DNA of 64,000 nucleotides from Candidatus Latescibacterota bacterium (GTDB lineage: Bacteria; Latescibacterota; UBA2968; GCA-2709665). A program made the position numbers and the translations under genes. Below the pieces are notes generated by a model, which saw only the letters and a program-made list of their open reading frames with translations, did no database searches and was not told the DNA's origin. The DNA is taken from NCBI GenBank assembly GCA_965208835.1, contig OZ242358.1, forward strand, positions 2,432,001-2,496,000. The letters are read 5' to 3'. Shown in pieces: positions 5,866-63,927 of the stretch (its first letter is position 1; every line of letters begins with the position of its first letter).

Positions 5866-6063
5866 TTTGCCTCAATGCCAAAAGAACAGCAACGCGGCGA
5901 CGCGATAAGACCCTCCGAAAAGGGGCGCTATCGACGTATAGAGGGACGTTTTTTCTTTCACGTCCAGTGACTTGGTGTATCCTGGTAATCCGCCGTCTAA
6001 TCGCCTTTATTTACAAGCACATATTCGAACTAACGTACCCGAAGACTTGCGAATCAGGGTTAA
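5866..6063 (+). mobile_element. MITE-like dispersed repeat, family 1, copy A
   Basis: Core TGGTGTATCCTGGTAATCCGCxGTCTAATCGCC...CGAATC..GGTTAA is shared with 33676-33874 (reverse strand) and 42950-43041. Left end is degenerate. Confidence 0.7.
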
Positions 6064-6090
6064 CCGTGCACGAAAGGAGGTGTCCGGCGG

Positions 6091-6480
6091 ATGAAGAGGC
6101 GCGAGATCGGGAAGTTCCAGAGTTTCGTTCTTGAGGAAGAGGATACGGTCGTGGTGATGGGTAACCTGAAAGCCCACGCGGATTTCCTCACGGGACTCGG
6201 GTTCAGCCGTCACCCGGATACGGGCGAGTACGTTGGCACCGGCGCCAATCTCTACGCAATGGCTCCAGACGATTTCTACGATCGATTCAGTGCGCGTACC
6301 GGCGCGGATCCGGAACTGACCGCTCAGGCTCACGACGGTGAGGATTTCTATCAGATCGACGGACTGCCGCTGGCCGCGGTAGATGTCAATGGCAATCCCT
6401 ACATCGAAGGAATTACTGCCGTGGACATTGAGACCCGGGTCTATATTGAACAGGGCGTCGCGAACTTCAGGGTTGGCTGA
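6091..6480 (+). CDS. Hypothetical acidic protein, 129 aa
   Basis: Strong AAGGAGG RBS, ATG start, protein-like composition. No family recognised. Confidence 0.75.
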   Translation: MKRREIGKFQSFVLEEEDTVVVMGNLKAHADFLTGLGFSRHPDTGEYVGTGANLYAMAPDDFYDRFSARTGADPELTAQAHDGEDFYQIDGLPLAAVDVNGNPYIEGITAVDIETRVYIEQGVANFRVG

Positions 6481-6494
6481 ACCGCCCGGACGGG

Positions 6495-7820
6495 TTATGC
6501 GTTGAGGTATTCGAGAGTATGTGCCGCCGCCCGATAGCCGCTTTCCACGGCACTTTCTACCGTGGCGGGGAGGCCGGTGTCGGTCCAGTCTCCTGCAACA
6601 TAAAGTCCGGGCGCTGCCGTGCGATTCGGTGGGGGAGAATGACCCTTTGGTAGCGCGAATGTTGCATGTCGTTCCCGCACAACGAGATGGTGCTCCAGAG
6701 GTATGTTGCTGGTTTCGGGCAGGAACTTATGCAGATCACCCAGCGCAATCTCCACGAGTCGTTCGTCAGGCTGGTCCACCAGCCTTCCGGCGGCGCTGGC
6801 AACGAGGGTTACGTGCCCCGGCGACGCTTTGTCGCGACCGTTGTAGAGCATCGGCTTGTTGAATATCCAGTCCATACGTCCCGTGAGAAGGCCGGCGAAA
6901 GGCATGTTGAGTACGGGCGCTCTGAACCATAGGTTAACGGAAAGGATCGGGGAAGGATAGAAGGACTTCAAACGAACCTTGAGATCTTCGAGCCCCTCCG
7001 GCAACAGGCGAGACAGCGCGGGTGGTGTGATGGCGCAGATGGCGGCATCGGCCGTCACAGCCGGCCCCGACTTCAGCCGGATCCGTATCCGGCCGTCTTC
7101 GGCAACGCGCAGTTCAGTGGCCGCCTCGCCAACGTGGCACGCACCTCCGTGCCTGTGGATGAAGCGCCTTGCCGCGTCGGTGTACATCGCGCTGAGCCCG
7201 ACGCCGGGATAGCCCATCAGGGTTGAATCGGAGCGGCCGAGAAACGCAAGCTTCAGGACGGAAGCCAGGTGGCTGGCCGGGGCGGCATCGGGATGCTGGT
7301 TCAGCGCGGAGATGCAGAGCGGGTCCCAGAACGCCTTCCGGATGGCTGGAGATTGCCTGCATTCCTCCAGCCATTCGTTAACCGTTACCCAGGACTGCAA
7401 CGGTGTCGCCAGAGCCGTCCTGACCCGCCGTAGCCGAACGACGTCCCTCAGGCTGACAGGTCCGTAACGCATGAATCCGGCAAGCAGATTGAGGGGAGGC
7501 GGCAGCAATCGGGGAAACTTGAGGGCGGTATGGCCCAGCCCGGGGCGCAGGAAGTCCAGCCGGAACTCTTCCTGAAACCGCAGGCGGTCTCCTGTACCGA
7601 TGGTTTCCAGAAATTTCCTGGTCTGGAGATAACATTTCATGAAGAGGTGCTGGCCGTTGTCTACTGTATCGCCTGTTGCTCGATCGGTAAATGAATAGGC
7701 TCGCCCACCCAGGTGTTTCCTGCGCTCAAACAGGTTGACGACGCAGGTTCCCCGTTCCGCAAGGCGAACTCCCGCGGCGAGACCCGCAAACCCGCCGCCG
7801 ATAATAACGATACGAATCAC
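6495..7820 (-). CDS. hpnE: Hydroxysqualene dehydroxylase (FAD-dependent)
   Basis: GGGFAGLAAG dinucleotide motif, LGGRAYSF, DNGQHL, AGDWTDTGLPATVESAVESG. Follows hpnC and hpnD. Confidence 0.9.
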   Translation of the reverse strand: MIRIVIIGGGFAGLAAGVRLAERGTCVVNLFERRKHLGGRAYSFTDRATGDTVDNGQHLFMKCYLQTRKFLETIGTGDRLRFQEEFRLDFLRPGLGHTALKFPRLLPPPLNLLAGFMRYGPVSLRDVVRLRRVRTALATPLQSWVTVNEWLEECRQSPAIRKAFWDPLCISALNQHPDAAPASHLASVLKLAFLGRSDSTLMGYPGVGLSAMYTDAARRFIHRHGGACHVGEAATELRVAEDGRIRIRLKSGPAVTADAAICAITPPALSRLLPEGLEDLKVRLKSFYPSPILSVNLWFRAPVLNMPFAGLLTGRMDWIFNKPMLYNGRDKASPGHVTLVASAAGRLVDQPDERLVEIALGDLHKFLPETSNIPLEHHLVVRERHATFALPKGHSPPPNRTAAPGLYVAGDWTDTGLPATVESAVESGYRAAAHTLEYLNA

Positions 7821-58021: not shown

Positions 58022-58186
58022 TTGATTTTCGGAAGCCATTGCGCATATTTTCGACTTGACGTGGGTGTAGCGGTAGATGCAGTCGTGGTTACACCGGCGC
58101 AGATGGAACTTTACAAGGATAATCACGCGCTCGTGATGAAACCCGCATTCCGGGAGGGAAGGGTTGTATATGAGAATAGAAACTGA
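58022..58186 (+). pseudogene. 3' remnant of a minimal nucleotidyltransferase (MNT antitoxin-like) gene
   Basis: Translates as ...VGVAVDAVVVTPAQMELYKDNHALVMKPAFREGRVVYENRN*, typical of an MNT C-terminus. No GS/DxD N-terminal half is present. Confidence 0.5.
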
Positions 58187-58370
58187 TCGGGAAGAAGACG
58201 GCAGGTGGATTGCAGAAGTGCCTGATTTACCCGGTGTGATCGTTTACGGAGACAATAAAGAAGATGCCATTCTGAAAGTTAAGGCATTGGCATTGCGGGT
58301 TCTTGCCGATCGCATAGAACATGGCGAGGAAATACCGGAAATCCGTGATGTCTTCGCAGGATCGGTATGA
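58170..58370 (+). CDS. hicB: HicB-family antitoxin (short form)
   Basis: EEDGRWIAEVPDLPGV..YG....A, GEEIP. ATGA overlap with hicA. Confidence 0.82.
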   Translation: MRIETDREEDGRWIAEVPDLPGVIVYGDNKEDAILKVKALALRVLADRIEHGEEIPEIRDVFAGSV

Positions 58371-58582
58371 ATCGATGGCCTTCAACAAGAGCACGTCAGG
58401 TCTTGGCTGCCTTGTTGCGGATTGGTTGGACGATAAAGCGTCAGTCTGGTACTTCTCATCGCATACTGACGCGGCAGGGTTGGCCGAATTACGTATTCGC
58501 TTTCCATTTGCGGGAAGAAATAGGGCCTCGTATGTTGTCCCGTATTGCTAAGCGTACCGGATTGACTCCCGATGATCTATGA
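58367..58582 (+). CDS. hicA: HicA-family mRNA interferase toxin
   Basis: LAALLRIGW..KRQSG.SH, FH..EEIGP.ML.RIAK.TGL. AT-richer than the flanks. Confidence 0.85.
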   Translation: MNRWPSTRARQVLAALLRIGWTIKRQSGTSHRILTRQGWPNYVFAFHLREEIGPRMLSRIAKRTGLTPDDL

Positions 58583-59607: not shown

Positions 59608-60009
59608 ATGTCAGTTGAGGATCTCATCAGGACGGTGATGACGGAATTCCGGCAAATCGTCAAGGCGGAGACGGTCGTGGGGGAGCCGATCGAAATCGGA
59701 GGCACCGTTGTGGTGCCCGTCTCCAGGATTTCTTTCGGGTTCGGCGCCGGTGGCGGTGCGGACAAGTCGGACGGCGGCGGGAGCGGCACCGGCGGCGGCG
59801 CATCCGTGGAACCCCTGGCATTTGTCGTGATTCGAGACGGAAAGGCCCAGATTCTTCCCGTCCAGGAAAAGGAAGGATCCATCAAGGGATTGTTGGACCT
59901 GGCGCCCGACCTTCTGGCGAAAGTGAAAGCCCTTAAGGAGAAGCGAGACCGGCGAAAAGCCGAGGCGGAAGCCGACGCGGATTCCGGTGACGACGACGTG
60001 AGCGCGTAG
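59608..60009 (+). CDS. GerW/YtfJ-family protein
   Basis: TVVGEPI, VPVSRISFGFGAGGG, GGGASVEP.AF.VI. Confidence 0.88.
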   Translation: MSVEDLIRTVMTEFRQIVKAETVVGEPIEIGGTVVVPVSRISFGFGAGGGADKSDGGGSGTGGGASVEPLAFVVIRDGKAQILPVQEKEGSIKGLLDLAPDLLAKVKALKEKRDRRKAEAEADADSGDDDVSA

Positions 60010-61238
60010 TGAACCGGCTTCTGCTGCTCATTCCGACGTCAACCTACCGAACCCGCGATTTCATGGCCGCGGCGGCCGCACTCGACGTCGCCGTAGTCGT
60101 GGGTTCGGACCGCCGGCAGGCGCTCGCGGGTCTGACACCCGGAAAGACGCTTGCGCTGGACTTCGCAAGACCGGCGGCCTCGGTCGAAAAGATCGTCGCC
60201 TTTTCGAAACGGTACCCTGTCCGGACGGTGGTGGGCGTCGATGACGAGACCGTCGTGCTTGCCGCGATGGCCTGCAGCGCGCTCGGACTTCCGCACAATC
60301 CGGTTCCGTCCGTCAGGGCTTCCCGCTACAAACACCTGATGCGCCAGATGCTTGCCGAGAAAGGCCTGCCCTCGCCGGGGTTCAGGCTTTTTTCAGTTCG
60401 GGACCAACCCGCCGCCGCCGCCGCGGCCGTCGACTATCCGTGCGTACTGAAGCCCGTTTCTCTCTCCGCGAGCCGCGGTGTGATTCGCGCGGATCAAAGA
60501 GCGGAATTCGTGACTGCATTCGATCGGATTCTCGAGTTGATTTCGGAGTCCGCAGACAGCTCGCACGAGGCCGGTGATTGCATTCTGGTGGAGGACTACA
60601 TCCCCGGCCGGGAGGTCGCGATGGAGGGACTGCTTGTCGACGGTGAACTGCAGACCCTCGCATTGTTCGATAAACCGGACCCGCTATGCGGGCCCTATTT
60701 TGCCGAGACCCTTTACACGACGCCGTCCCGGCTTCCTGAATGCGTTCAGGCGGGGATTAAAGGAACTGCGCAGGAAGCAACGCGCGCGCTCGGATTGACC
60801 GTGGGCCCGGTCCACGCGGAACTTCGGCTGAACACGCGTGGGATCTATGTCGTGGAGATTGCCGCGCGGTCCATCGGCGGGCTGTGTTCGCGGGTGTTGC
60901 GGTTTGGCGCGGGCGTGTCGCTGGAAGAACTGATTCTGCGCCAGGCGACGGGTCACGCTCCGGGCGATCTACGCAGGGAAAACGCCGCTGCCGGGGTCAT
61001 GATGCTGCCGGTGCCACGGGCGGGAACCCTACGGCGCGTCCGGGGTGCGGCGGGCGCACGGCGCGTGCCGGGAATTGTCGACGTCACGATAACCGTTCCA
61101 CGGGGCCAGCCCGTTCAGCCGCTGCCCGAGGGGGACCGGTATCTGGGGTTCATTTTTGCGCGCGGGAGGACACCCGAGACTGTGGAAACCGCGCTCCGGG
61201 AGGCCAACGGACTGCTCGAGGTCGTGATCGAGGGATGA
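60009..61238 (+). CDS. ATP-grasp ligase (amino acid ligase-like)
   Basis: YPCVLKP...SASRGV, LVEDYIPGREV..EG, HAELR, EIAARSIGG, GDRYLG. Confidence 0.85.
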   Translation: MNRLLLLIPTSTYRTRDFMAAAAALDVAVVVGSDRRQALAGLTPGKTLALDFARPAASVEKIVAFSKRYPVRTVVGVDDETVVLAAMACSALGLPHNPVPSVRASRYKHLMRQMLAEKGLPSPGFRLFSVRDQPAAAAAAVDYPCVLKPVSLSASRGVIRADQRAEFVTAFDRILELISESADSSHEAGDCILVEDYIPGREVAMEGLLVDGELQTLALFDKPDPLCGPYFAETLYTTPSRLPECVQAGIKGTAQEATRALGLTVGPVHAELRLNTRGIYVVEIAARSIGGLCSRVLRFGAGVSLEELILRQATGHAPGDLRRENAAAGVMMLPVPRAGTLRRVRGAAGARRVPGIVDVTITVPRGQPVQPLPEGDRYLGFIFARGRTPETVETALREANGLLEVVIEG

Positions 61239-61252
61239 GTGGCTGCGAACAG

Positions 61253-61292
61253 GCCGGTGGACCCGGGACAGGTTCGATCGGTTTCTTTCTTT
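61253..61292 (+). terminator. Possible intrinsic terminator between the convergent ATP-grasp and radical SAM genes
   Basis: Imperfect GCCGGTGGACC / GGTTCGATCGGT stem followed by TTCTTTCTTT. Confidence 0.35.
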
Positions 61293-61305
61293 ATGATCCT
61301 TCAGG

Positions 61306-62742
61306 TCAGACAAGAGCGAACTGCTCTTCGGTGGGCTCCGCTCAGCAGTACCAGGGTTCGGTGAGGCGGGGAAGCGATCGGCGGGTCGGGTCCGCATCGA
61401 TAACGACCCTTGGTGCCGGCCGGTCCAGCATCCCGTGCACATGCGACCTGATCCTGCGGAAGATCTCTCGCCGGGGGGCGTCGCTTTTCTGGAGCCGGGC
61501 GACCAGCCGGGTCAGTTCATTCTGGAGCCGGTCCAGACGGGCGTCGGGATGCGCCCACGGGTACAAGAGGGCTTCCGGCGTGAATGTGCCCACCAGATTG
61601 CGGACCTCGGCAAGTTCCAGCAGCCTTGATTCCCCGGGGATAAGCAGCCGGATGGTGAGTTGAACGGGCGAGACGTGTTCGATCAGGTCCAGTTCGGCGA
61701 GTGTGTTCAGAAAACGGGCATACCCCTCCAACGTGATCCAGGGCGTGAACGGGATAAACGTCGGATTCATCACGAGCCGATGTCTCTTGAAGAGCTCGAC
61801 GACCTCGAAGAAGTCGTCGACCGTGTGCCCTTTGTCCAGCAGCGCGAGAACGCGGTTGTCCAGAGACTCTACGGCGGTCGTAACGAGTGCGCACCCGGTA
61901 TCTCTGAGGAGGGGCAGATAGCGCCCATTCTTCAGCAGATGTTCGATCTTTACGGTGATGTCGTAGGTTAGGTCGGGAAATCTGTGGTGCAGTTTTTCGA
62001 CAAGCGGTACGGCGTGGCCGATTCCGTTGAAGAAGTCGGGATCGCCAAACGTGATGTGTTCCGCACCCGTGGCAACCTGTCTCGCAACGTCGTCCAGCAC
62101 GATCTCCGGTTGTACAATCCGGAACCTCCCGCCGTATACGGGCACAACCGGACAGTGGCGACAGAGATGCTTGCAGCCGCGGCTCGCCTCGGTATAGCCG
62201 ACGGTTTTCAGATGCCCGTCGCCCGTGGACAGCCGTGCGTAGCGGGAAAGGTCCGGAAGGCCTGCACGGTCGGGCGGAAGAAAACGCTGCCTGGCAACGG
62301 AAACGACCGGGTCTTCCTGGTCTCCAAGGGCGCCAGAATCCTCCCGCAGGCGATTGCACAGCTGAAGCAGTCCGTTTTCGAATTCACCACCAAGTATGGT
62401 CTGTGCGCCCATGCTTCTCAGGAAGGACTCGTTGACCGAAGCATAGAGACCGTAGAAACAGAGATGTGCGTCGGAATTCAGTTTACGTACCCTTGAGACC
62501 AGTGGAACAGCAAGGCGCGTCGCGGTATGCATTGGCACGTAAAAGGCCACCAGATCGGCGTCGCGAACGTCGTCAGAAGGGAAGTCGACTATGGAAACGT
62601 CGGCCTGGACCACATCGATGTCCGCCCTCCGCAGCCACGCAGCCGGCGAGGCCAGACCGAATGGCTGTCGACCCAGTTCGTAGGTGGACACGAGTACGGC
62701 TTTGAACGGACGCGATTGGCTTGTGGTCGTCATGGGTCGCAT
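61306..62742 (-). CDS. CUAEP-tail radical SAM selenoprotein; in-frame UGA (Sec) at 61344-61342; start 62742 or 62733
   Basis: B12-binding-like N-terminal domain and CKHLCRHC motif. Tail reads TAC TGC TGA GCG GAG CCC ACC GAA GAG CAG TTC GCT CTT GTC TGA = YC-U-AEPTEEQFALV*. Confidence 0.88.
61312..61328 (-). promoter_or_regulatory. Candidate bacterial SECIS hairpin
   Basis: AAGAGC-AGUUC-GCUCUU stem-loop starting at +14 after the UGA, with a G-containing loop. Confidence 0.55.
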
Positions 62743-62745
62743 ACC

Positions 62746-62798
62746 AAAACAAACGGCAGACGACGGGGAGGTGCCCCTTGAAGTCTGCCGTTTGTTTT
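62746..62798 (-). terminator. Long hairpin between nfuA and the radical SAM gene (terminator, attenuator or stabiliser)
   Basis: Perfect 16-bp inverted repeat AAAACAAACGGCAGAC / GTCTGCCGTTTGTTTT with an inner GGGG/CCCC stem. Confidence 0.6.
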
Positions 62799-62807
62799 CT
62801 GCCGATA

Positions 62808-63392
62808 TTACTTCGAGGTCTGGTAGTAGGGGTTTGTGCCGTCCGCGTGTTCGGTAATGTCGAGAATCTCTTTGATTTCCGGCACGGCCTCCTTGATCAG
62901 GACCTCGACACCCTGCTTGAGTGTCACGTCCACCATGCCGCAGCCCTGGCATCCGCCTCCGAACTGGATGTACGCTTTGTCGTCCTTCACATCGATCAGC
63001 GAGATATGGCCGCCGTGCATGGCCACGCTGGGATTGATCTTCTCGTCGATGATGTTCTGGATCTTCTCGGCGGCCGTGCCTTTCAGATGCGGAGGAACTT
63101 TGTTGGGATTCTCGATTTTGAATCCTCTGCCCATCAGGCTGTCCACAAAGTCCAGCGTAATGTCCTCGGCATAGGGAGCGCTTACCGGGTCAATGTAGAT
63201 ATTGAACCCTTCGAACGGCGTGACGGCGTCGTCGTCCTCTTCCTGACCGCGGGCGACGAACGCGAGCCGGTAATTGGCCTGCAGCGGGGACACCGCCTCG
63301 GCCTTGACGCGAACGCCAACGATGTCCGTTTCCTGGCTCCCGATCAGGTTGACAACTTCCTTCTGCGCGGCTTCGGTAACGGTAATATTCAT
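62808..63392 (-). CDS. nfuA: Fe-S cluster carrier NfuA (degenerate A-type domain + Nfu domain)
   Basis: ITVTEAA, GFKIENPN, INPSVAMHGG, FGGGCQGCGM, D.TEHA.G.NPYY. Confidence 0.88.
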   Translation of the reverse strand: MNITVTEAAQKEVVNLIGSQETDIVGVRVKAEAVSPLQANYRLAFVARGQEEDDDAVTPFEGFNIYIDPVSAPYAEDITLDFVDSLMGRGFKIENPNKVPPHLKGTAAEKIQNIIDEKINPSVAMHGGHISLIDVKDDKAYIQFGGGCQGCGMVDVTLKQGVEVLIKEAVPEIKEILDITEHADGTNPYYQTSK

Positions 63393-63432
63393 ATCGACCT
63401 TCCCCTCGGAGAGATTGGCAGTGGCGGGACGG

Positions 63433-63927
63433 TCAGGATTCCAGCGCCACAGCTGACCTTGCGGGTTGTTCCCGGTCTATCTTTTCCTGGATCTTCATCA
63501 GCGCGGACAGCAGATCTTCGGGTCGGGGCGGACAGCCGGGCACGTAGACATCGACCGGCAGAAACTGGTCCACGCCCTGTACCAGCGTATAGGTATTGAA
63601 GACACCTCCGGACGACGCGCACGCGCCCATCGAAATCACCCATTTCGGATCCGGCATCTGGTCATATATCTTCTTGAGTACCGGCATCATCTTGATTGAT
63701 ATCCGGCCCGATACGATGAGCAGGTCGGACTGGCGGGGCGAAAACCGCACGGCTTCCGCGCCGAACCGGGCCATGTCGAAGCGCCCGGAGAGTGTCGCCA
63801 TCATTTCGATGGCGCAGCAAGCCGTGCCGAATGGCATCGGCCACAGAGACGACTTGCGCGCCCAGTTTATCATCTTTGAAAGCGTGGTAGTAATTACGTT
63901 GTCGCCAAGGCCCGTTTCAAGTCCCAT
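63433..63927 (-). CDS. nuoB: NADH-quinone oxidoreductase subunit B
   Basis: [52 protein letters not shown]. Confidence 0.92.

Follow-up and report, generated by a model that had tools for sequence, protein, structure and literature searches.

A radical SAM gene with an in-frame UGA

The window considered here is the whole stretch of 64,000 nucleotides from Candidatus Latescibacterota bacterium (contig OZ242358.1, positions 2,432,001 to 2,496,000). It carries, on the minus strand, a gene for a radical S-adenosylmethionine (SAM) enzyme with an in-frame UGA close to its 3' end, most probably a selenocysteine (Sec) codon. With translation table 11, the open reading frame (ORF) of this gene spans 61342-62952 and ends with ...LTEPWYC followed by TGA (61342-61344). 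The initial annotation had claimed that the frame continues beyond this codon, and its description is borne out at 61306-61347: past the first TGA, the 11 sense codons AEPTEEQFALV (61309-61341) precede a second TGA (61306-61308), and the resulting WYC-U-AEP motif lies at 61333-61353. Beyond the second TGA, the same frame gives PEGS and then TAA. In a single sequence, an open stretch of 11 codons after a stop is common by chance. The gene was placed at 61306-62733, because its nearest relatives (loci L047 and L048) begin at a Met aligned with the ATG at 62733 and because the 70 additional N-terminal residues of the long ORF starting at 62952 fall outside the NF040546 family profile. The ATG at 62742 is an alternative start.

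When compared with the NCBIfam family NF040546, the read-through protein scored 606.7 bits (cut-off 500, E 2.7e-182), with residues 86-546 of the 548-residue read-through ORF aligned to positions 2-467 of the 468 in the profile. The tail is thus included in the family profile, whose end coincides with the second TGA. Besides this score and the end-to-end alignment, the C-(U/C)-A-E-P tail and the CxxxCxxC motif indicate membership of the family. This is in agreement with the initial annotation, in which the gene was assigned to a family of CUAEP/CCAEP-tail radical SAM proteins; indeed, the name given by NCBI to the database relatives is "CUAEP/CCAEP-tail radical SAM (seleno)protein". A six-frame search of the genome with the same profile returned one copy (600.8 bits) with one in-frame TGA. 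The sole Pfam domain in the read-through protein is Radical_SAM (PF04055, 46.6 bits), and its layout consists of a Rossmann-type (B12-binding-like) N-terminal domain, a radical SAM core with CxxxCxxC, a variable linker and an invariant tail. In an alignment of 27 members, the cysteines of the CxxxCxxC triad and the tail pair are invariant, C94 and C283 are nearly so, and the linker ahead of the invariant EPW(Y/F)C(U/C)AEP tail varies in length.

NCBIfam has already curated the family, including its selenoprotein status, and for this reason the initial annotation overrates the novelty of its reading. The gene is an additional member of a known, named and unstudied family, for which both the observation and its interpretation are confirmed. 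A literature search for the motif name CUAEP returned the Haft 2022 preprint as the only relevant mention, and CCAEP added none. Neither NF040546 nor CUAEP occurs in the main text of the 2026 review of the prokaryotic selenoproteome (PMC13188914), nor "radical SAM" in the main texts of the deep-Sep and BSepDB papers, although the supplements of these works may list the family. It was correctly stated beforehand that the reaction of the CUAEP/CCAEP family, which is very large and strongly conserved, is unknown, and this reaction is where the remaining value lies.

Homologues were then compared across the UGA. Among 41 related genomes, a match above the NF040546 cut-off was found in 22, namely all 21 genomes of the same taxonomic family and the window's own, and exactly one TGA lay inside the match in 22 of 22; in the sister family, all 19 genomes stayed below the cut-off. 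All 20 related loci that were fetched read WYC-TGA-AEPT(E/A)EQFAL(V/T/A)-stop. In these loci the tail DNA shows synonymous changes, any of TGA, TAA and TAG can serve as the final stop, and similarity collapses right after it. A wider scan, with one representative genome per species, gave at least 600 pattern-matching stretches, at least 583 of which encode relatives, and the best 80 were kept. These 80 come from Latescibacterota, Acidobacteriota, Chloroflexota, Methylomirabilota, Actinomycetota, Pseudomonadota, Entotheonella and others, and 79 of them (all except L057) contain W(Y/F)C(U/C)AEP. At the variable position, the codon is TGA in 61 loci, TGC in 13 and TGT in 5, and AEP follows in every one, as expected from the alternation between Sec and Cys proposed in the initial annotation. 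On a FastTree phylogeny of 78 of the 79 loci (one 182-residue fragment was dropped), 10 switches between Sec and Cys are needed, at least 7 of them forced by well-supported branches. Identity within the family is 55-60% across phyla, and the protein database search returned at least 8000 clusters at E <= 1e-10. Cultured carriers include Thermomicrobium roseum (Sec form), as well as Nonomuraea and Virgisporangium (Cys forms). A pseudogene with a nonsense mutation was ruled out, TGA being the majority state across phyla.

The truncation by standard gene callers that had been foreseen is visible in public databases. Seven of the 10 best database proteins have 463 residues, the length left of the 475-residue protein once the 12 codons starting at the UGA are removed. 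Likewise, the RefSeq coding sequence (CDS) of Thermomicrobium roseum DSM 5159 (TRD_RS12835, plasmid NC_011961.1; Sec form, 5947-7440 of locus L126) ends with ...TESWFC at the TGA, whereas the following codons read AEPLED. The window's gene should be annotated as a 475-residue selenoprotein, since public predictions, even the RefSeq annotation of a cultured species, are cut at the UGA.

Reading of the UGA as selenocysteine

The genome of the window is a single 5.18-Mb contig, and the Sec machinery that the initial annotation had predicted for this organism was found in it. The genes selA (563.6 bits) and selB (361.2 bits) and the tRNA-Sec (73.4 bits) stand side by side at C1:3536434-3539955, while selD (358.6 bits, one in-frame TGA) lies outside the window at C1:4401300-4402223; selA, selB, selC and selD are all above their cut-offs. 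ARAGORN likewise reports a tRNA-SeC with the anticodon tca. The TGA of selD falls within C-G-U-A-A-K near the N-terminus, the known Sec/Cys site of SelD, and selD is itself a selenoprotein gene. In the genomes sampled, selA was present in 5 of 5 with the Sec form against 2 of 5 with the Cys form, the completeness of the latter genomes being unknown. The two outcomes named beforehand as fatal to the reading, a genome without selABCD or homologues ending at WYC with no AEP, were not encountered: all four genes are present, and AEP is retained in 79 of 79 motif loci.

Selenocysteine would be inserted at the UGA by SelB and tRNA-Sec, directed by a Sec insertion sequence (SECIS) hairpin inside the last eleven codons, and translation would end at the second UGA. 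The 6-bp hairpin reported to start at +14 is indeed there, with AAGAGC at +14 to +19 (61323-61328) paired to GCUCUU at +25 to +30 (61312-61317) and a local folding energy of -7.4 kcal/mol. The stem thus extends over +14 to +30 and the loop starts at +20 with A-G-U-U; this spacing and the G in the apical loop fit the bacterial SECIS model (bSECISearch criteria). Among the TGA forms, the hairpin stands at a fixed place in one of two registers, with a 5-nt loop as in the window or with a 4-nt loop (GGGACC-AGUU-GGUCCC type). The mean local free energy is -10.0 kcal/mol in Sec forms (n = 62, own locus included) versus -4.3 in Cys forms (n = 18), and values of -7 or below were obtained for 58 of 60 Sec forms versus 3 of 18 Cys forms. 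At least five contiguous pairs are formed in 51 of the 62 Sec forms, compared with 1 of the 18 Cys forms, and 10 of the 11 other Sec forms contain one internal mismatch. Similarly, A-G-(U/G)-U occupies +20 to +23 in 62 of 62 Sec forms versus 8 of 18 Cys forms.

The pairing itself leaves a trace in the alignment. In the 37 sequences with the 5-nt-loop register, pairing is found in 78.8% of the cells, a share that drops to 44.8-58.3% once the partner is shifted, and both sides change in 5 of the 8 pairs (e.g., G-C in 24 sequences and A-U in 9). This covariation score was reached by none of 500 shuffles. Because kin are not independent, Sec and Cys forms were also compared as 7 phylogenetically independent pairs on the tree; the hairpin went with Sec in a mean of 5.6 pairs and in the opposite direction in 0.0 (median sign-test p 0.031).

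Several observations weigh against recoding. Folded as a single sequence, the 66-nt region around the UGA is unremarkable (z = -1.07; 29 of 200 shuffles fold equally well), and its minimum-energy structure favours a different helix. No SECIS family was matched when 61150-61500 was scanned with Rfam at E <= 10, the three matches obtained (cold-seep-1, mir-207 and sR42) being at chance level. Moreover, the hairpin lies within coding sequence, so its conservation is partly that of the protein, the Gln in the loop being at least 90% conserved, and the comparison includes only 18 Cys forms, which are kin. The case for recoding rests on the comparison among homologues, because the features of the single sequence are no better than chance.

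One might instead consider the first UGA as a genuine stop, the enzyme ending with ...WYC and the conserved stretch downstream being an RNA element such as a terminator or a regulator. Standard gene calling does end at the first TGA, public 463-residue proteins do so as well, and a hairpin stands just downstream of the UGA. Yet the 11 codons are conserved at the protein level, their changes being synonymous; a Cys codon replaces the TGA in 18 of 79 homologues, which continue into the same AEPT..Q tail; the profile covers this tail up to position 467 of 468; and conservation ends exactly at the second stop, whichever of TGA, TAA or TAG it is. A genuine stop is highly improbable. The same very low probability applies to a decoding of the UGA by another route, i.e., insertion of Cys or Trp through a near-cognate tRNA or a reassignment of the code: Cys is tolerated at the site in 18 of 79 homologues, but selA, selB and selD are present in the genome together with a tRNA whose anticodon is tca, and the SECIS-like hairpin tracks TGA and vanishes with TGC or TGT. 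A reassigned code was ruled out, because TGA is also a normal stop, ending both this radical SAM gene and the neighbouring ATP-grasp gene.

Judging from the comparison of homologues, the UGA at 61342-61344 is decoded as Sec, and the predicted protein carries a vicinal Cys-Sec pair twelve residues from its C-terminus. The best overall explanation, to which we give a probability of roughly 0.88, is a Sec-tailed radical SAM enzyme of the NF040546 family whose UGA would be recoded through SelB, tRNA-Sec and the SECIS hairpin.

Neighbouring genes and other features of the window

The features of the locus are listed in Table 1. Upstream on the same strand as the radical SAM gene are found a SUF operon, an Rrf2 regulator, a NuoB homologue and the NfuA-type carrier, the latter also matching TIGR00049, a family of accessory proteins for Fe-S assembly. 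The best solved relatives of the ATP-grasp protein are the L-amino acid ligase BL00235 (3vot, E 5.1e-35) and BacD. A YtfJ-like gene is the other annotated neighbour.

Table 1. Position, strand and supporting evidence of the features discussed in the text.
Feature	Coordinates in the window	Strand	Basis
CUAEP-tail radical SAM protein (predicted selenoprotein), full CDS	61306..62733	-	475 residues including Sec, and terminal TGA; NF040546 match
CxxxCxxC (C-K-H-L-C-R-H-C), radical SAM [4Fe-4S] cluster motif	62152..62175	-	C189, C193 and C196 invariant
Cys codon TGC adjoining the Sec codon	61345..61347	-	column C465, invariant across 27 aligned members
Predicted Sec codon, in-frame TGA, residue 464 of 475	61342..61344	-	aligned TGA in 61/79 loci, TGC/TGT in 18/79
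11 codons after Sec (AEPTEEQFALV), AEP invariant	61309..61341	-	conservation at the protein level, synonymous DNA changes
SECIS-type hairpin, 6-bp stem, loop AGUUC	61312..61328	-	local fold, covariation, presence in Sec forms
True stop, second TGA	61306..61308	-	profile ends here; TGA, TAA or TAG in relatives; conservation stops after it
ATP-grasp ligase, L-amino-acid-ligase type, convergent with the radical SAM gene	60009..61238	+	ATP-grasp_4, LAL_C2, ATPgrasp_N (Pfam)
NfuA-type Fe-S carrier, directly upstream, co-directional	62808..63392	-	TIGR03341 at 163.3 bits, below its cut-off of 269.35; TIGR00049
Intergenic hairpin, nfuA stop to radical SAM start	62746..62798	-	perfect 16-bp stem followed by a U run; terminator- or attenuator-like

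The neighbourhood was compared over 81 loci (the window's and the 80 kept), 56 of which have at least 3 kb of flank on both sides. In these 56, an ATP-grasp ligase homologue was found within 3 kb in 39 loci and within 300 nt in 29. A YggX-type Fe(2+)-trafficking protein was found in 27 (5 within 300 nt), NfuA in 10 (all 10 within 300 nt, upstream) and DUF169 in 6 (5 within 300 nt); at least one of the four occurred within 3 kb in 42 loci. In most phyla the ligase gene comes after the radical SAM gene and is co-directional with it, but in this lineage it is convergent. Aconitase, glucose-6-phosphate dehydrogenase (G6PD) and glucokinase recur in acidobacterial loci. In Thermomicrobium roseum, the neighbours are a pyridoxal-phosphate-dependent aminotransferase and a major facilitator superfamily (MFS) transporter.

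The hairpin between nfuA and the radical SAM gene is highly stable (-33.6 kcal/mol, z -3.82, none of 200 shuffles as good). It has an inner GGGG/CCCC stem, and its U run stops three bases before the ATG at 62742. The core of its stem recurs, with differing loops, in six relatives of the same genus and is missing from six loci of other genera. It could be a terminator or an attenuator controlling the selenoprotein gene. A scan of 61100-63500 for promoters and terminators gave no promoter-like and two terminator-like sites, no more than in shuffled sequences; it missed this hairpin because the loop exceeds 8 nt.

Antisense to nfuA, a 292-codon ORF (62721-63599, plus strand) is a shadow frame of GC-rich DNA, and in five loci (cluster c12) such a frame was wrongly picked as a gene. 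Further away, at 58164-58582 on the plus strand, two small overlapping ORFs of 68 and 71 residues have by eye the look of a HicB/HicA-type toxin-antitoxin pair; neither matched an NCBIfam family at E <= 1e-5. Among the public sequencing runs listed, 14 contain half or more of the words sampled from 61000-63400, and marine and sponge metagenomes are among them, which is a hint of habitat only.

Predicted structure, relation to ArsL and possible reaction

A structure was predicted with AlphaFold2 from 27 family members, with a mean predicted local distance difference test (pLDDT) of 88.2 and a predicted template modelling (TM) score of 0.88. The last four blocks of ten residues have pLDDT values of 69, 73, 68 and 65, compared with mostly more than 90 in the core. 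In the initial annotation, the Cys-Sec pair was placed on a flexible tail; the vicinal pair stands, and a flexible tail would be consistent with the lower pLDDT of the model and with the variable linker. No chain of the PDB was matched by the sequence of the radical SAM protein at E <= 0.01. By structure, Foldseek gave AprD4 as the best solved match (6fd2_A, E 4.9e-17, TM 0.66), followed by TsrM, OxsB and MgmA (6wte, 5ul3 and 9ccb; TM 0.55-0.63) and then MiaB. The overall fold of the model is shared with AprD4, TsrM, OxsB and MgmA, which are radical SAM enzymes with a Rossmann (B12-binding-like) domain, and some NF040546 members carry a precomputed PF02310 hit, but identity to these enzymes is just 15-19% and none of them has a Cys-Sec tail.

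The second-best family was ArsL (NF040542), the RCCLKC-tail radical SAM enzyme that acts in the biosynthesis of arsinothricin, with 279.5 bits over residues 86-478 of the 548-residue ORF and below the cut-off of 450. According to two preprints (10.1101/2024.02.01.577332; 10.64898/2026.04.29.721666), SAM is split by ArsL into methylthioadenosine and a 3-amino-3-carboxypropyl species, the latter being joined to As(III), and As(III) is held by the three cysteines of its C-terminal RCCLKC. The window's protein has the same domain layout as ArsL, with homology over about 390 residues, and in both a Cys-rich motif stands in the last dozen residues after a variable linker. Selenium sits exactly where ArsL binds its substrate, and the reaction could reveal a new use of Sec and a new metabolite. 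The tails differ: R-C-C-L-K-C provides three thiols, as in the Bacillus cereus member ending with ...KRCCLKC, whereas this motif is missing from the window's protein (...WYCUAEPTEEQFALV), in which C-U-A-E-P provides two chalcogens, one of them selenium. Unlike in ArsL-type clusters, neither arsM, arsQ/MFS, ArsR, aquaporin nor ArsN was found among the annotated or recurrent neighbours.

Plasmid-borne proteins with an RCCLKC tail (36 of 37 plasmid records) are 30-32.5% identical to the window's protein. Their clusters include an ATP-grasp gene in five of six genera, one locus each: Bacillus cereus, Alicyclobacillus, Priestia, Pantoea and Klebsiella. It is missing solely from the canonical arsQ-arsL-arsM cluster of Pseudomonas amygdali. 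The ligases of B. cereus, Alicyclobacillus and Pantoea were compared with that of the window, giving identities of 23% over 377 residues (E 4e-19), 25% over 360 (E 9e-25) and 24% over 181 (E 2e-7), respectively. In Alicyclobacillus, Pantoea and Klebsiella, the cluster further includes arsM and an MFS transporter, and most of the RCCLKC-tail clusters have ArsR, an aquaporin-type channel and a GTP-binding protein. Hence, the pairing of a radical SAM enzyme with an amino-acid ligase is common to both sister families. The clusters that combine RCCLKC with ATP-grasp hint at undescribed peptides of the arsinothricin type. A search for literature linking arsinothricin with ATP-grasp found no relevant paper, and the papers listed for RCCLKC are all on ArsL.

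From this shared pairing we infer, tentatively, an ArsL-like transfer of a SAM-derived fragment onto an atom held by the Cys-Sec tail, followed by ligation. The enzyme would cleave SAM at its [4Fe-4S] cluster, and the carbon fragment, most likely 3-amino-3-carboxypropyl, would be attached to a soft atom that the Cys-Sec tail holds or supplies. The unusual amino acid formed would then be coupled to another amino acid by the neighbouring ATP-grasp ligase, and the Fe-S cluster would be serviced by NfuA, or by YggX in other lineages. More speculatively, the CUAEP enzyme and the ligase may make a widespread and undescribed organo-element dipeptide, containing an amino acid of the selenohomocysteine or arsinothricin type built on the chalcogen or metalloid of the tail, as part of Fe-S and redox homeostasis. 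If true, the link with NfuA, YggX, aconitase, G6PD and SUF would place this metabolite in Acidobacteriota, Latescibacterota, Methylomirabilota, Chloroflexota and others, and the same logic would predict undescribed arsinothricin-containing dipeptides from the RCCLKC-tail clusters with an ATP-grasp gene.

A number of results do not favour such a transfer and ligation. The score falls short of membership of ArsL (279.5 versus 450) and the tail offers two chalcogen ligands, not three. No ars gene was found among the annotated neighbours in the window. An ATP-grasp gene is absent within 3 kb in 17 of the 56 full-flank loci, and there is none beside the radical SAM gene of Thermomicrobium roseum. 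In the window, the ligase gene is convergent and not co-transcribed, and a terminator-like hairpin stands ahead of the radical SAM start. The recurrent neighbours, such as aconitase, YggX, G6PD and glucokinase, are housekeeping-like.

A C-terminal Cys-Sec pair is also present in animal thioredoxin reductase, and AprD4 is a radical SAM enzyme that makes an ordinary 5'-deoxyadenosyl radical. As in thioredoxin reductase, the Cys-Sec pair may be a redox-active selenenylsulfide on a swinging tail, which would supply the electrons or the hydrogen atom needed to complete a canonical 5'-deoxyadenosyl-radical reaction with an amino acid as substrate, and would carry no substrate atom. This is the main rival on function, about as likely as the transfer, and one that we hold with limited conviction. 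It is in line with AprD4 being the top fold match (TM 0.66), with the recurrence of Fe-S and redox-stress neighbours (NfuA, YggX, aconitase and G6PD, and the SUF operon in this genome) and with selenoproteins being mostly redox enzymes, as stated in PMC9312934. Against it, ArsL, the sole characterised relative by sequence, holds its substrate atom by a Cys tail, and the pairing with a ligase is common to ArsL-type clusters.

A role with toxic soft metals or metalloids (Hg, As, Sb, Se or Te), whether in detoxifying them or in forming organometals, appears unlikely: the Haft 2022 preprint groups the family with CU-motif selenoproteins tied to heavy-metal interaction, and the sister family ArsL acts on arsenic, but there is no metal-resistance gene among the annotated neighbours in the window nor in the eleven recurrent neighbour clusters annotated over the 81 loci (c14 being without a Pfam match), and an identity of 55-60% across phyla with at least 8000 database clusters looks housekeeping.

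The CU-motif selenoproteins described in that preprint (KCU-star NF033934, some MerT and the HgcA/SAO-system proteins) also have a vicinal Cys-Sec near the C-terminus and are often truncated in databases. However, they belong to unrelated folds and families, and the motif is the only link. Compared with the other members of NF040546, the window's gene has no family-defining difference; its local features are the convergent ligase, the presence of NfuA rather than YggX and the terminator-like hairpin before the start.

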